Positions 6,376 through 48,490 of a stretch of 64,000 nt of DNA are shown here, piece after piece; the first letter of the stretch is position 1; the number at the start of each line of letters is the position of its first letter. The stretch is taken from assembly GCA_903929485.1 (NCBI GenBank), contig CAIYUY010000097.1, positions 3,088 through 67,087 on the forward strand, given 5' to 3'. The position numbers and the translations under genes were made by a program. A model generated the notes under the pieces. It was given only the letters and a program-made list of their open reading frames with translations. It made no database searches and had not been told where the DNA came from. This DNA comes from an uncultured Desulfuromonadales bacterium. Lineage in GTDB: Bacteria > Desulfobacterota > Desulfuromonadia > Geobacterales > CAIOGM01.

Positions 6376-6593
6376 GCGGTCCTCCGGATAATCGTAAATA
6401 AAGTTGGAACAACCCCCTGGCTTGGTCGACGAAGGAGGAGCGGGCGGGATCAAGCGTGGCCACGGCAACCTGTTCCGATGAAATCGTAACTTCGAAAACT
6501 GTCCGGATAAAGGGTAGCCTGTATCTTTAACCGAAATCGAAGAATAACGCAACCGGCTTATGCCATGCCGCCATACTGATAGCTTGACACCGG

Positions 6594-7733
6594 ATGATTT
6601 TCAGCATACATGATCGGAAAGATCAAAATATCCGGCATCACCAGGGCATCAGGCGTTCGACGCCGTCACTTTTAGTCTCACTGCCGGAAGAAGCATTCGG
6701 CACGGAGAGAACGCTGATTCTTCCTTGCCGGCCGATAACGGCGCACTACGCAGGAAATGGTTGCAACTACACGATTTTTTTGCCAGGAGCTCTTCCCGTG
6801 ACCTTTAAACGTATCCTGCTGATCATTCTCACCCTCCTGGCTGTCGCCGGAGGCATCGTCGGCTTCGCCTTCGTTTCCCTCCCCCCGGTGGAGCCTTTGA
6901 AAAAACGCTCCTGCAACATGACCATCCCGGTGAAAGACTGGCAGGGGAATTATCACCCCTTTGTCGTGGGGCCCAAAAATCCTTACTGGACCGGGTCAAG
7001 GAGCATCCCGGCGGAGATGAAGTGGTCGGTGATCCTGGCGGAGGATGCAAGTTTCTACAAACATGACGGGATCGACGTCAAGGCGATCAAAAAAGCGATC
7101 CAGTATGATCTGGAGAAGCAGTCCCTGGCCCGTGGGGCCTCCACCATCACTCAGCAGACCGCAAAAAATCTTTTCCTTTCCCGGGAAAAGAGCATCAGCC
7201 GGAAAATCCGGGAGGTCATCCTGGCCAAGCGGATGGAGCAGGAACTGACCAAGGGGAGGATCCTGGAGCTCTACCTGAACGTGGTGGAGCTGGGACCCAT
7301 GGTCTACGGCATCGGTCACGGCGCCCGCTTCTACTTCGGCAAGTCCGCCGCGCTCCTTACCCCCCGGGAGAGCACCTTTCTGGCCGCCATGCTCCCCGGC
7401 CCGCGGGTGGCCTTCAACCCGTACCGGGATGTGGACAAGGTCATGAAGCGATCGGACCTGATCCTGAAGCTCCTGCGAAAACGGGGAGTTTTAACGGAGG
7501 AGGAGTACCAGCGGGCGTTGGCGGAAACACCGAACATCGCCGGGCTCCAGCGGAAAGTAGATGCAAGTATCAAGAAGGAAGAGGCGTTCCCCAACCGGAG
7601 CAGCGTCATGGGGCCGGCGCTCCCGGCCGTGGGGAGCGGCGAAGAACTTCCGGCCCGAGAGGAATCCGGCGAGGCGGTGAGAGAAGCGGAACCGAAGGAG
7701 GGAGAGGCGCGACCGGAAGCGGAGCGGAAATAA
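6594..7733 (+). CDS. mtgA: Monofunctional peptidoglycan glycosyltransferase (GT51) with a Glu/Pro/Ala-rich C-terminal tail
   Basis: Motifs EDASFYKHDGID, RGASTITQQTAKN, RKIREVILA..E and a TM helix ILLIILTLLAVAGGIVGFAF. The true start may be GTG at 6798 (ggagc lies upstream). Confidence 0.85.
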   Translation: MIFSIHDRKDQNIRHHQGIRRSTPSLLVSLPEEAFGTERTLILPCRPITAHYAGNGCNYTIFLPGALPVTFKRILLIILTLLAVAGGIVGFAFVSLPPVEPLKKRSCNMTIPVKDWQGNYHPFVVGPKNPYWTGSRSIPAEMKWSVILAEDASFYKHDGIDVKAIKKAIQYDLEKQSLARGASTITQQTAKNLFLSREKSISRKIREVILAKRMEQELTKGRILELYLNVVELGPMVYGIGHGARFYFGKSAALLTPRESTFLAAMLPGPRVAFNPYRDVDKVMKRSDLILKLLRKRGVLTEEEYQRALAETPNIAGLQRKVDASIKKEEAFPNRSSVMGPALPAVGSGEELPAREESGEAVREAEPKEGEARPEAERK

Positions 7734-7763
7734 CCGGACGTCTCCGGTAACAACCTCTGTTTG

Positions 7764-7803
7764 CTCAGTAAAACGGAGCATCGGACTACTCCGTTTTACT
7801 GAG
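7764..7803 (+). terminator. Perfect 15-bp stem-loop 30 nt after the mtgA stop
   Basis: ctcagtaaaacggag / ctccgttttactgag with a 10-nt loop. The downstream tract is only weakly U-rich. Confidence 0.5.
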
Positions 7804-7885
7804 TCTGCGTTATTCAGCCATGCTACCTGATGTAACATTGGCGGGAGAGAGTAGCACCTCATGCGCGAAGAGTGAGCCCCGGTAG

Positions 7886-8256
7886 TTACACAGCTTCAAT
7901 CTCGAACCCCACGATGTTCCGACTACCGCGGCTGAACTTGACGCCGATGAGAGTGATCGGTTCGCCGTACCGCCGGTATTTCTCGGCATACCCCTTGCTC
8001 TTCAACTGCTCCAGAGCCTTGCCCAGGGGAACCATCTCCACCACCTTGAATTCAAACAGGTAGATCCGGCGGTTAAACCGCACCGCCATGTCGATCCGCC
8101 CTCTGTTGGTGGCGTCTGCCACGGTTATCTCCAGCCCCAGGGCGGCGAAGTAACTGTAGAAGATACTGGCGTAGTACCCCTCGTAGCCGGCAAGCTGGTT
8201 CTTTCGGTACCAGTCGTGGGGGATGGAAGCAAAGAAGGTTGGAATAGCAGTTATCT
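7886..8256 (-). pseudogene. C-terminal fragment of a PD-(D/E)XK nuclease (PDDEXK_9 domain of AAA-ATPase-like proteins)
   Basis: The frame reads ..IPTFFASIPHDWYRKNQLAGYEGYYASIFYSYFAALGLEITVADATNRGRIDMAVRFNRRIYLFEFKVV..KGYAEKYR..ITLIGVKFS. Only about 120 aa remain, with no plausible start, and the fragment abuts the stop of the upstream gene. Confidence 0.6.
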
Positions 8257-20166: not shown

Positions 20167-21081
20167 ATGTACCAGGAAGAGCTCAAACGGGAAGTTCGGG
20201 AACTGCTCCGCTCGCGCAATGCGGTGCTGCTGGCCCACAACTACATGCGGGACGAAGTTCAGGAGATCGCCGACATTACCGGAGATTCCCTGGCCCTCTC
20301 CCAGGAGGCAGCCGCCACCGATGCGGAAGTAATCGTCTTCTGCGGGGTCCATTTCATGGCGGAATCCGCCTCTATCCTCGCCCCGGAGAAGATCGTGCTC
20401 CTCCCCCGCCTGGACGCCGGCTGTCCCATGGCGGACATGGTCACCGTGGAAGGGTTGCGCGAACTGAAGAGGCGCCATCCGGGAGTTCCGGTGGTCACCT
20501 ACGTCAACTCCTCGGCCGCAGTGAAGGCGGAGAGCGACATCTGCTGCACCTCGGCCAATGCCGTCAGGGTGGTGGAATCTCTCCCCGACGATGAGATCAT
20601 CTTCGTTCCCGACCGGAACCTGGGAAGATATGTGGCCGGTTTCTCCTCCAAGACCTTCCACTTCTGGGAGGGGTTCTGCCCCACTCATGAGCGGATGACG
20701 GCGGCGGGAGTCCTGCATCTGAAGGAGGAACACCCCGATGCCCTCTTCGTCTGTCACCCCGAATGCGCCCCCCAGCTGTTGGCCCTGGCGGATCATATCT
20801 GTTCCACCTCCGGCATGTACGACTGGTGCCGCACGAGCTCCTCCCGCCGGTTCATCATCGGCACCGAGGCGGGGATTCTCTACCGCCTCCGCCTGGAGAA
20901 CCCGGAAAAAGAGTTCATCCTCGCATCACCGGCCCTGGTCTGCCCCAACATGAAACTGACCTCCCTGGAGGATATCGTTCTTGCCCTGCGGAGCATGTCA
21001 CCGGTGGTTAAGGTTCCCGAGGAGATCCGGATTCCCGCCCGCCGGGCGCTGGAGCGGATGCTGGCGGTTCCCAGAGACTAA
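20167..21081 (+). CDS. nadA: Quinolinate synthase
   Basis: [32 protein letters not shown], 304 aa. Confidence 0.93.
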
Positions 21082-21083
21082 CG

Positions 21084-21166
21084 GCGTGAATGGTGAAGAG
21101 TGAATGGTGAATAGATCAAAGTCCTTTCGCTTTTCACCATTCACCATTCACCATTCACGTTTTTTT
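21084..21166 (+). terminator. Rho-independent terminator built from gtgaatggtgaa repeat units
   Basis: The arms cgtgaatggtgaagagtgaatggtgaa and ttcaccattcaccattcaccattcacg pair with 2 mismatches. A T7 run follows. Confidence 0.75.
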
Positions 21167-21201
21167 GCACTTTTCACCATTCACTTTTCACAGAGGTTGA
21201 C

Positions 21202-21735
21202 ATGATTCGTTCTTTTCACGGAGTTCACCCGAATATCGACCCCACGGCCTTCGTGGCGGAGACCGCCGTGGTGGTCGGCGATGTCTCCATGGGGCCCCAG
21301 AGCAGTATCTGGTATAACTGCGTGGCTCGGGGTGACGTGAACTTCATCACCATCGGCGCCCGGAGCAATATCCAGGACCTCACCATGCTCCACGTCACTC
21401 ACAAAAAAGGTGCCGACGACCCCGGCGCGCCGCTGATCATCGGCGACGACGTCACGGTGGGACACAGCGTCACCCTTCACGGTTGCACCATCGGGAACGG
21501 GGTCTTTGTGGGGATGCAGGCGATGATCATGGACAAGGCTGTCATCGGTGAAGGAGCGCTCATCGGGGCTCGGGCCTTGGTCACCGAAGGGACGATTGTT
21601 CCTCCCCACACCCTCTGGATCGGCGCCCCGGCCAAGTACAAGCGGGATCTCACCCCGGACGAGCGTGCCTGGCTCCAACGCTCCGCCGGCAATTACGTCC
21701 GGTACGCGGAAGAGTACCGCAACGACCGCTCGTAA
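21202..21735 (+). CDS. Gamma-carbonic-anhydrase-like LbH protein (YrdA/PaaY family)
   Basis: Hexapeptide repeats, SIWYN.V.RGD, H-containing IGD.VTVGH motifs, 177 aa. Confidence 0.88.
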   Translation: MIRSFHGVHPNIDPTAFVAETAVVVGDVSMGPQSSIWYNCVARGDVNFITIGARSNIQDLTMLHVTHKKGADDPGAPLIIGDDVTVGHSVTLHGCTIGNGVFVGMQAMIMDKAVIGEGALIGARALVTEGTIVPPHTLWIGAPAKYKRDLTPDERAWLQRSAGNYVRYAEEYRNDRS

Positions 21736-21791
21736 TTCGCCAACGTTGCATCCCCTACGGAACGAGGATATAATCGTCCGGCCCAAAAGAG

Positions 21792-22709
21792 TCAGCGGTT
21801 ATTCCGCAGCAGTTCGACGCTGATTCCGGCGACCTCCGCCGCCTCCTCCGGACTCATTCCCTTCTCAATCAGGCAGCGGGCAACCTCCACCTTCCCCTCC
21901 TGTTTGCCGGCCTGCATGCCGGCCTCCATCCCCGCCTGCATCCCTTCTTCCCTACCCTCCAAACGGCCAAGCCCATAGTTGGATTCGATAAGGCTGGCTT
22001 GATAGCTCAGCTCATACTGATAGCGTTCATATGCCAAGCGCTCTTTCTCCGGCAGGCTTAACAGGGAAAAGGCTTTTTTCGCCTGTTGTATCCCCTTGGC
22101 TTTGAATTCAACCTTGATCTCTTCGTTTTTCAGAAAATAGATCCACTCGTCCAGGGACGTTGTCGCCACGTCGTTAAAGTTATTGATCCGGAGCAGATAA
22201 TACTCGGGGAAGAGGTGGTGAATCTGCTCCTTGCCGTACAGTTTTTGCTGCCTGCTGCTGAGTTCCAACTGGTCGTGATCGTGAATACCGGTAAAACTAG
22301 TGACGCCGCGATAGATATAGTCGCTACCATGCCCCAGATCGAAATAGAGAATGTTGACGGAGATGACTTTCACCAAGTGGGAAAACGGTTCTCCTTCCCG
22401 TTGATGCTCGGTTATGGCGCGGGATGTCCCGTACAGCATCCGTTGCAGGTAGTCATGCTCCCGTTCGTACTGGAGTTCGATGAGGATGATCTCGCCGGCG
22501 CTGTTTTTCACCTTCAGATCGACCCGGTTGAACTTGTCGCCAACACTCTCCTTGTTGCTTTCGCTCTCCAGAATTTCCAGGATCACGATATCTTCACAAA
22601 GCAGTTCACTCAAGAATCCTTCCAGGATCTCGAAGTTGGCCTTGCTTCGCAGTAGTCGTTTCATGGCCCAATCAAAGGTGATCAGCTTGCGTTTGAGTTC
22701 CGTTTTCAT
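21792..22709 (-). CDS. Rpn/YhgA-like recombination-promoting nuclease (PDDEXK_2, transposase_31 family)
   Basis: The core reads DKFNRVDLKV...GEIILIELQYE (PD-(D/E)XK). The C-terminus has a repeated EGxxxGxxxG region and a helix-turn-helix-like tail. Confidence 0.75.
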   Translation of the reverse strand: MKTELKRKLITFDWAMKRLLRSKANFEILEGFLSELLCEDIVILEILESESNKESVGDKFNRVDLKVKNSAGEIILIELQYEREHDYLQRMLYGTSRAITEHQREGEPFSHLVKVISVNILYFDLGHGSDYIYRGVTSFTGIHDHDQLELSSRQQKLYGKEQIHHLFPEYYLLRINNFNDVATTSLDEWIYFLKNEEIKVEFKAKGIQQAKKAFSLLSLPEKERLAYERYQYELSYQASLIESNYGLGRLEGREEGMQAGMEAGMQAGKQEGKVEVARCLIEKGMSPEEAAEVAGISVELLRNNR

Positions 22710-22820
22710 GGCGTCTCCTCCAATCGGGGCATGGCCGTCCGGAGAGTTTGATTAACTGTTCATAAGCTACTTCGATTCACCGTATCGTGTCAAGAGATTC
22801 GTCCCCATCCCTATCCTATA

Positions 22821-22925
22821 CCCTCCGGATCGGCGCCCCGGCCAAGTACAAGCGGGACCTCACCCGGGATGAACGTGCCTGGCTTCAGCGCTACGCCGCG
22901 AAGTACTGCAACGACCGCTCGTAAT
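22821..22925 (+). pseudogene. Orphan second copy of the last about 33 codons of the gamma-CA-like gene
   Basis: 22821-22925 aligns to 21611-21735 at roughly 85-90% identity with a 15-nt deletion, including the stop and the trailing cgctcgtaat.cgcc. Confidence 0.8.
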
Positions 22926-23348
22926 CCGCCGATTTAGCTTGTCATCACCGGAGGCCGTGAGATTTCTTCCGACCTTTGGTGCGTGCAAAAATGTTCCTGA
23001 AACATTTCTTCCGGCACTCTAACCGTAAAAACATCATACCATCACGTCAGGAATTCAGGACACGTATCGGTGTGCAGGCGACACAAACCAATATTGACCG
23101 CAAGGAAGCAACCACGACGATTGCCGAACGACTGGCAGGCCAGATTGCGGCATACTTCAGGTAAGAGGCATCCCATTCAGATTCTTCCGCCATGGGGCCG
23201 GGGAAACTTTCTCCGGCCCGATCCGCGACCGGAGGTCACCGTCCCAAAACAGTGATAAATTTTGCCTTTATTTACTAAGGAGTTTGCGCTATCGTCAGCC
23301 ACCTTCTCGCATTCCGATCACAACTCTCTTCATTTTTGGGGCCGCTCC

Positions 23349-48358: not shown

Positions 48359-48397
48359 CCACAATTTATGCTACCTCTGTAGAATACCGTAAAGACT

Positions 48398-48470
48398 GTG
48401 AATGGTGAATAGTGAATGGTGAAAAGAACCTTGAACATAGAACAGGTTTGGACGTGAATGGTGAAAAGTG
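48398..48470. repeat. gtgaatggtgaa repeat cluster
   Basis: gtgaatggtgaatagtgaatggtgaaaag ... gtgaatggtgaaaagtg. The same word family occurs at 21084-21195 and 35747-35763. Confidence 0.75.
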
Positions 48471-48490
48471 CACGGCAACCGTAGGGGCGC

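Follow-up and report, generated by a model that had tools for sequence, protein, structure and literature searches.

Genes of the Rpn family were first annotated as transposases and are horizontally transferred, and how they move has been an open question since 2017. In Escherichia coli, the endonuclease RpnA has low specificity and increases recombination that does not depend on RecA, and for rpnC two independent insertions have been inferred at one position between panC and panD (PMC5350276). No inverted repeats, target-site duplications or defined ends have been found for rpn genes, which were judged not to be autonomously mobile, and no autonomous PD-(D/E)XK transposase is known (PMC10400941). 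Here, we describe a locus within a 64,000-nt stretch of DNA from an uncultured Desulfuromonadales bacterium (contig CAIYUY010000097.1, positions 3,088 to 67,087; hereafter referred to as the window), in which a single rpn gene is bracketed by two diverged copies of the 3' end of a neighboring gamma-carbonic anhydrase-like (gamma-CA-like) gene. An earlier reading of the window, made from its letters alone (the sequence-only reading), had drawn attention to this arrangement and had stated that rpn genes are without known defined ends, a statement with which the literature agrees (PMC10400941).

As for the gene itself, it adds one more ordinary member to the Rpn/PDDEXK_2 family. Like E. coli RpnA to RpnE, its product belongs to TIGR01784, has a PD-(D/E)XK core with a D...ExQ pattern, and carries variable C-terminal 4-aa repeats followed by a small domain; as with the E. 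coli genes, we see single-gene acquisition, a patchy distribution, and the same site being hit in different lineages, here at the ABC-ATPase and adenosine 5'-phosphosulfate (APS) kinase loci described below (PMC5350276, PMC10400941). It differs from the E. coli Rpn proteins in matching PF12784, whereas those match PF04754, and from the published rpn genes in general in that it is accompanied by a target duplication of ~157 bp and has unit limits that are reproducible in another context.

Integrative elements that replace the 3' end of a gene, such as e14 and phage 21 in icd and the islands found in tRNA genes, offer a second comparison. As in these elements, the gene remains intact by virtue of one copy of its end, and an orphan copy lies beyond the insert; unlike in these elements, an integrase and an identical core site are both missing, one 1-kb gene makes up the whole insert, and both copies stem from the resident lineage. 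Insertion sequences likewise consist of a single-gene unit between direct repeats of target DNA. However, the rpn unit is without terminal inverted repeats, the repeats that surround it are 50–190 bp rather than 2–14 bp in length, and its 3' limit varies. Finally, Wolbachia PDDEXK_2 'transposase' genes, which belong to the same Pfam family, are found beside cif islands and Octomom and, like the genes studied here, are tied to moving or amplifying segments that are far more conserved than their surroundings; no mechanism was given for these, the islands concerned are multi-gene and lie in prophages, and a flanking target duplication is not reported in the text searched (PMC13439711). In the literature that we searched, the coverage of which is incomplete, we found no account of rpn genes bracketed by a duplicated gene end or promoter. 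The footprint around rpn is a new feature for the Rpn/PDDEXK_2 family.

The duplicated gene end and the rpn unit between its copies

Copy 1 of the duplicated segment (Table 1) comprises the final 129 nt of the gamma-CA-like coding sequence, including the stop codon, and a trailer of ~26 nt. That the homology continues for ~26 nt past the stop codon emerged from comparison with rpn-free relatives and with L001, a locus of the same architecture in a second genome (see below), and the right edge of copy 1, immediately after ...ACGGA, was placed where copy 1 of both the window and L001 diverges from copy 2 and from the rpn-free relatives. While the duplication noticed in the sequence-only reading is thus real, its extent is larger than the ~125 nt, repeated at 22821–22925, that had been assigned to it. 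The repeat search of the window identified two pairs of direct repeats, 21605–21696 with 22815–22906 (86% identity, 92 nt) and 21700–21741 with 22889–22930 (83%). As the start-to-start spacings of these two segments are 1210 and 1189, the deletion in copy 2 is an in-frame one of seven codons, or 21 nt, and not of 15 nt as first counted; the identity of 85–90% first estimated for the copies agrees with the ~86% measured for the core. A MAFFT alignment and blastn (E ~6e-25 inside the window) both support this repeat pair, and no third copy of the gene end was detected in the 64-kb window by blastn or tblastn.

As had been recognized from the outset, copy 1 serves the intact gene and copy 2 is an orphan. 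Copy 2 is damaged by the 21-nt in-frame deletion and by inactivating substitutions, including a Trp to Arg change that is common to the orphan of L001. Between the two copies there are eight synonymous and seven non-synonymous differences (proportions of differing sites, pS 0.31 and pN 0.085), as expected of one constrained and one free branch. The MAFFT alignment revealed no long identical core, only runs of up to ~30 nt within the 86%-identical repeat. Identical Rpn and gamma-CA-like proteins co-occur on 17 of the 17 contigs that carry them and, since the layout is present on all of these contigs and also in L001, an independent metagenome-assembled genome (MAG), it is not an assembly artefact.

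Table 1. Positions, in the window, of the gene end repeats, the rpn unit and the adjacent features
Feature	Position	Strand	Remarks
nadA	20167-21081		upstream of gamma-CA-like gene
Intact gamma-CA-like (hexapeptide-repeat) gene, 177 aa	21202..21735	+	target gene; Pfam Hexapep, NCBIfam NF050158
Copy 1 of duplicated segment	21605..21761	+	attached to intact gamma-CA-like gene
rpn unit, ~1,036 nt	21768..22803	-	94-nt leader, open reading frame and 24-nt trailer
Rpn-family PD-(D/E)XK nuclease gene, 305 aa	21792..22709	-	sole real gene between the copies
Leader of rpn unit	22710..22803	-	TTGACA (22788-22793), 18 nt on TAGCTT; putative promoter
Copy 2, orphan gene end	22815..22952	+	no 5' part of gamma-CA-like gene attached
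Decayed remnant of the gene's ancestral intrinsic terminator	22945..22990	+	aligns with GGAGGCCGGGAGATTTCCCGG-T8 of L167-L171

The DNA separating the two copies is 1,053 nt long, and the opposite-strand nuclease gene is, as originally read, the only gene in it; neither a tyrosine or serine recombinase nor any other gene was found between the copies, and tblastn identified one rpn-like gene in the whole 64 kb. The Rpn protein scored 102 bits against TIGR01784, 'Rpn family recombination-promoting nuclease/putative transposase' (cut-off 52.1; residues 12–302), and 95.7 bits against PF12784 (PDDEXK_2) but had no match to PF04754 (YhgA-like) at E ≤ 0.01. Hence, of the Rpn/YhgA-family label initially given to the gene, the Rpn part is retained and the YhgA-like part is not. 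Residues of catalytic type were read by inspection of the translation as D13, D64, E78-L-Q80 and R90; the residues that have been mutated in RpnA are D11, D63, E82, Q84 and R94 (PMC5350276). The C-terminus contains a run of 4-aa repeats (EEGM/QAGM/EAGM/QAGK/QEGK), the number of which differs among homologues, and then a short helix-turn-helix-like tail, which gave the sole match in a PDB sequence search, a weak one to a designed helical repeat protein. Judging by analogy with characterized Rpn proteins, the gene most likely encodes a toxic DNA endonuclease that is restrained by a small protein from its own 3' end. The Rpn protein had no match among the PADLOC 2023 models, which is not evidence against a role in defense, as this library may predate or lack Rpn systems; a scan of viral contigs with the protein also found no relatives.

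The limits of the unit were obtained by comparison with L164, an rpn locus in a different context. In a blastn alignment, window positions 22803..21768 matched L164 with 81.5% identity over 1,048 nt, after which the homology ends, and these limits are 6–15 nt away from the inner edges of the two copies. The 5' limit of the unit, GACGAAT.TCTTGACAC, ~10 bases upstream of the conserved TTGACA, is identical in the window and L001, L164, L178 and L175; the 3' limit differs from locus to locus. The leader is conserved in four unrelated contexts, with 92 of 94 positions being identical between the window and L001. No terminal inverted repeats were found at the unit ends. Because a consensus promoter scan did not call the TTGACA/TAGCTT pair, the promoter is only putative; the region between the convergent genes gave no terminator call. 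The G+C content of the rpn open reading frame (ORF) is mostly 47–53%, compared with ~61–64% in nadA and the gamma-CA-like gene; the rpn cassette is of foreign composition.

The empty site in relatives and the origin of the two copies

We used the gamma-CA-like protein to scan one genome per species, which provided 80 Geobacteraceae and Desulfuromonadales loci for comparison. Only one of these 80 loci, L001 from an uncultured Geobacteraceae MAG (92% protein identity), has an rpn gene beside the gamma-CA-like gene. Although the architecture of L001 is that of the window, its rpn gene has lost residues 42–223 through a 546-nt deletion with a frameshift, and its orphan gene end retains the 21 nt missing from the window but is truncated at the 3' end and fused to a downstream TraT-like fragment. 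Because the two orphans are damaged at different places, they have decayed independently. The rpn remnant of L001 (6590–6963, minus strand) has kept the leader together with an open C-terminal ORF of 81 aa, for which the ratio of non-synonymous to synonymous substitution rates (dN/dS) relative to the window is ~0.1. In E. coli, the matching C-terminal region is translated separately as an antitoxin, RpnS (PMC10400941); by analogy, and in agreement with the model of an intragenic antitoxin, the 81-aa ORF may be a remnant that has kept only the antitoxin.

The rpn-free relatives, L002 (92% identity), L167–L171 (89%) and L172–L174 (87%), have a single gene end; the presence of both copies in relatives without rpn, which would have refuted the sequence-only reading, is thus not observed. 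In L167–L171, an intrinsic terminator, GGAGGCCGGGAGATTTCCCGG-T8, comes after the stop codon. A degenerate form of this terminator sequence is found after copy 2 of the window, where copy 1 instead enters the rpn unit after ...ACGGA. Based on the arrangement in the rpn-free relatives, the empty site consists of the gene end, ~26 nt and the terminator; what the window has in excess of this site is the rpn unit and a second ~157-nt copy. With regard to linkage, copy 1 keeps the ancestral upstream side and copy 2 the ancestral downstream side. We found no rpn-free variant of this very species, all 17 contigs carrying rpn. The slot after the gamma-CA-like gene is a variable spot, as L002, L167 and L172 each hold different genes there. 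In L002, of the rpn-free genomes the closest, a gene for a 520-aa hybrid histidine kinase/response regulator (6556–8118) lies between the gamma-CA-like and CxxCxxCC genes.

The descent of the copies was traced over 117 aligned positions, with L002, L167 and L172 as outgroups and copies 1 and 2 of both the window and L001 as the ingroup. Derived bases common to all four ingroup copies were present at six positions, while none was exclusive to the two gene-attached copies and one (TGG to CGG, Trp to Arg) was exclusive to the two orphans. Moreover, both copies carry the lineage-specific ...DRS* tail and the TAATCCGCC trailer. On account of these common derived bases and this tail, we conclude that both copies derive from the gene of this lineage itself or of a conspecific. 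The sequence-only reading had proposed a replacement of the gene's 3' end that left the displaced original behind; a displaced orphan on native downstream DNA is indeed what we find, but there is no support for an imported copy 1.

The gamma-CA-like protein scored 190 bits against NF050158, which is under the 250-bit equivalog cut-off, and we use the label 'gamma-CA-like' because this cut-off is missed even though the hexapeptide-repeat fold family is clear. The synteny of nadA with this gene is common to the 80 Geobacteraceae loci. The spacer between the two genes (21085–21191) is made up of 7-nt GGTGAAT-type repeats, which fold into a long hairpin with a U run after it (-44.5 kcal/mol, z = -6.6), and the 12-mer family of this spacer occurs again at 48396–48472 (10 matches, with 0.38 expected); it looks like a repetitive extragenic palindromic (REP)-like element that also acts as a terminator. 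On the other side of the insert, a 62-aa ORF (22976–23164, plus strand) matches the TraT C-terminus with its last 40 residues (PF05818, 28 bits; cut-off 31). These 40 residues are 100% conserved in L001 (7181–7297), in which the orphan gene end is, through a deletion, fused with the TraT-like fragment, and the ORF is probably the remnant of an older gene that lay between the gamma-CA-like and CxxCxxCC genes.

Flanking repeats at other rpn loci

A metagenome scan yielded 80 further rpn loci encoding proteins of 56–82% identity, 57 of which could be tested for direct repeats that flank the ORF on either side (600-nt flanks, blastn, E ≤ 1e-5). Such repeats were found at 16 of the 57 rpn loci, compared with none of 270 control ORFs (Fisher p = 1e-13). 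These controls comprised 250 ORFs of similar size in Geobacteraceae loci and 20 non-rpn ORFs from rpn contigs; five apparent matches among the former were index artefacts at contig starts. Flanking duplications, which the sequence-only reading had proposed looking for at other rpn genes, are therefore present at a number of them, but the 16 positive loci are heterogeneous, and at four of these the repeats are just 27–35 nt long.

Unique host sequence that hugs rpn is repeated in about six cases. At L099 and L104, repeats of 77 and 180 nt, respectively, correspond to the 3' end of an ABC-ATPase gene, while the 61-nt repeat of L157 is the 3' end of a 458-aa ORF and the 52-nt repeat of L163, a close homologue outside the 57, belongs to a promoter-like region. 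L089 has a non-coding repeat (109 nt, 86%) that hugs rpn, and the repeat of L086 (127 nt, 100% identical) is part of a neighboring rpn-like gene. In the unique-sequence cases, the neighboring gene or its promoter was left intact every time, and in ten repeat-positive loci no tRNA gene was found as a repeat target. Taken together, this small survey suggests that the footprint is recurrent in this clade.

The two ABC-ATPase loci deserve closer description. Both in L099 and in L104, rpn stands directly after the same gene, which has diverged between the two loci to a pS of 0.73 (synonymous substitutions per site, dS, 2.7), whereas the dS of rpn is 0.19 (p = 5e-23). The orphan of L104 is 86% identical to the intact gene end of L099, while the two intact ends are 71% identical to each other. 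Furthermore, the gene ends at these loci are of two tail types, and the orphans differ in length.

The closest rpn homologues (79–85% identical at the protein level) are found in surroundings that are unrelated: they follow a DUF4350 gene in L163, a SulP transporter gene in L165 and L166 and an AAA ATPase gene in L176, stand beside an APS kinase gene in L164 and L178, and are near a PEP-CTERM gene in L175. A repeat flanking the unit of L164 (63 nt, 95%; outside the 57) was considered but rejected as a footprint, as it belongs to a REP-like element with multiple copies, which L178 has as well. L164 (2907–3954) and L178 (2407–3267), from two related genomes, have units that are 89% identical and flanks that are 91% identical at the nucleotide level, with the units in opposite orientations and at slightly different distances from the APS kinase gene, which points to either an inversion or independent insertion at one hotspot.

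Two further loci show repeats within more complex surroundings. On the 1.65-kb contig of L086, the rpn ORF stands between two copies (1–127 and 1403–1529) of the 5' part of another rpn-like gene, which represents either a very recent event of a like kind or a mis-assembly. In L089 (24–4406), rpn with its own 109-nt repeat lies inside a 2.8-kb islet that also contains a toxin-antitoxin pair and a phosphoribosyltransferase (PRTase)-like ORF. At either boundary of this islet stands a copy of a DegT-like aminotransferase gene's 3' end, the duplication being 186 nt long, 81% identical and protein-conserving; the outer orphan copy forms an in-frame fusion with the PRTase-like ORF.

Routes by which the cassette may have entered

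From the anatomy of the locus, the limits of the unit, the empty site, the resident origin of the copies and the recurrence of the pattern, we infer how the joints may have been made and what part, if any, the nuclease may have had in this. The account to which we lend moderate confidence is an integrase-free, microhomology-associated duplicative insertion followed by homology-guided spread. A leader-plus-rpn cassette of ~1.04 kb would have entered ~26 nt past the stop codon of the gamma-CA-like gene, just before the terminator, in one event that both inserted the cassette and duplicated ~157 bp of the resident target. The gene-side copy would have preserved frame and stop codon, and the other copy would have become a functionless orphan that later lost 21 nt. 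Both joints would result from illegitimate, microhomology-associated joining rather than from a site-specific recombinase, the source being offset nicks or breaks, or a template switch, repaired with fragment capture. In favor of such joining, the ...GAGATTCGTC with which the unit ends on the orphan side adjoins a target reading GATCGTCCC in L001, where it belongs to the palindrome GGGACGATCGTCCC, and GATTGTTCC in the window, and the insert has neither a recombinase gene nor terminal inverted repeats. A low-specificity nicking or cutting nuclease such as Rpn might provoke these breaks, in keeping with the published activity of RpnA (PMC5350276). Thereafter, the flanking homology would allow the cassette to spread to relatives via ordinary recombination.

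Several observations weigh against duplicative insertion, at least as a complete account. To our knowledge, a duplication of ~157 bp far exceeds the footprint of any known transposase. The microhomology at the orphan-side joint is short and was judged by eye. Repeats are present at only a minority of rpn loci, and no flanking repeats were found at L165, L176 and L178; moreover, the 16 positive loci include L092 and L094, which are tandem rpn arrays, and L111, L112, L138 and L140, which have one palindromic REP-like element on both sides, none of these six being target duplications, and the repeat of L158 is probably REP-like too. At L104, the two copies differ almost wholly at synonymous sites (pS 0.83, pN 0.07; pN/pS 0.09), which fits an imported allele rather than an in-situ duplication and requires that another functional allele was the source of one copy or both. 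Finally, divergence between the window and L001 is uneven. While dS is 0.41 for both nadA and the gamma-CA-like gene, it is 0.20 for the surviving rpn codons (14 of 81 synonymous sites; p = 0.013), the leader differs at 2 of 94 positions, and the unit as a whole is 95.5% identical, compared with 88–90% for the flanking genes (p = 7e-6); for the two repeat copies, identity is 85% and 87%. Such low divergence of the unit points to exchange between the lineages after their split or to unusual constraint, and suggests later exchange rather than one ancient event, although part of the constraint on the unit may be real, given the dN/dS of the 81-aa ORF.

These last points are what one might expect if, as we consider possible but hold only tentatively, the cassette arrived already joined to a gamma-CA 3' end, either as a circle looped out of a donor with rpn beside this gene (integration in Campbell fashion) or as linear DNA with one-sided homology, and recombined with the resident end, an account that spells out the model of the sequence-only reading. 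The product would be the gene with a hybrid 3' end, rpn, a hybrid orphan and native downstream DNA, and copy 2 has indeed kept its native downstream linkage. In natural transformation, homology-facilitated illegitimate recombination, by one-sided homology and a microhomology joint, can insert foreign DNA beside a conserved gene segment and displace an orphan copy, and orphan toxin tips are displaced at rhs/cdi loci; both processes fit L099, L104 and the outer repeat of L089. Homology-guided arrival accounts for these three cases better than duplicative insertion does, as rpn copies with a dS of 0.19 occupy one gene end in hosts whose gene has a dS of 2.7, the L104 orphan is closer to the L099 end than the intact ends are to each other (86% compared with 71%), the L104 copies differ as functional alleles do, and the outer 186-nt repeat of L089 is protein-conserving. 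That rpn differs so little between the window and L001 may have the same explanation. In the case of the window's locus, however, the lineage bases and tail common to both copies (DRS*, TAATCCGCC) require any donor to have been almost identical, and none is in sight, since, L001 aside, none of the gamma-CA loci scanned has rpn beside the gene. Furthermore, the orphan-side joint coincides with the 5' limit of the unit in three unrelated contexts, which would be unexpected for a random end or for circle closure, and a primary insertion that placed rpn next to the gene would still be needed. Homology-facilitated recombination alone leaves both the reproducible cassette-end joint and the first arrival of rpn at a new locus unexplained. 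Duplicative insertion and homology-guided spread are not exclusive, as the former could precede the latter.

The succession of gene end, cargo and displaced gene end is the classical signature of an island, or of a cis-mobilisable element, that was inserted by a site-specific recombinase and that supplied a substitute 3' end, and rpn could be the sole cargo remaining after the integrase and other genes had been deleted; the 2.8-kb multi-gene islet of L089 is bounded by a duplicated gene end, and a TraT C-terminal fragment lies near the insert of the window. Yet the DNA between the repeats matches the L164 unit to within 6–15 nt at both ends, leaving no room for remnants, it contains no integrase or other gene fragment, the TraT fragment is outside the repeats, and the tight rpn-only pattern is seen again at other loci, all of which makes a decayed island highly improbable. 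We find it very unlikely that two unrelated events are responsible, be it a tandem duplication of the gene end and the chance landing of rpn or a duplication of gene end plus rpn followed by the loss of one rpn. Tandem duplications around rpn have been reported (PMC10400941) and are seen at L092 and L094; but rpn would have to sit exactly at the duplication joint, there is no remnant of a second rpn after copy 2, the rpn-free relatives are without the duplication, and the same picture is found at independent loci.

The duplicative insertion that we favor could be carried further, in a form that we regard as doubtful: Rpn/PDDEXK_2 cassettes might be self-promoting mobile genes, the low-specificity nuclease making offset nicks or breaks, the repair of which would capture the cassette and duplicate 50–190 bp of target; the repeats would then travel along as homology arms, or act as excision points, and in this way direct the cassette to the corresponding gene end in other genomes. 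If true, this would be the first defined insertion footprint for rpn genes and a mechanism unlike that of any transposase or integrase. To the question of how rpn genes move, the locus contributes a clean case, in which an empty site is present in relatives, the limits of the cassette recur, and a long target duplication spares the host gene. Our survey further suggests that hosts diverged to saturation can receive the same rpn at one and the same gene end. The vague idea that these genes move by recombination or hitch-hiking can thus be replaced by specific, testable models, and annotators have reason to check for orphan gene ends beside defense genes.

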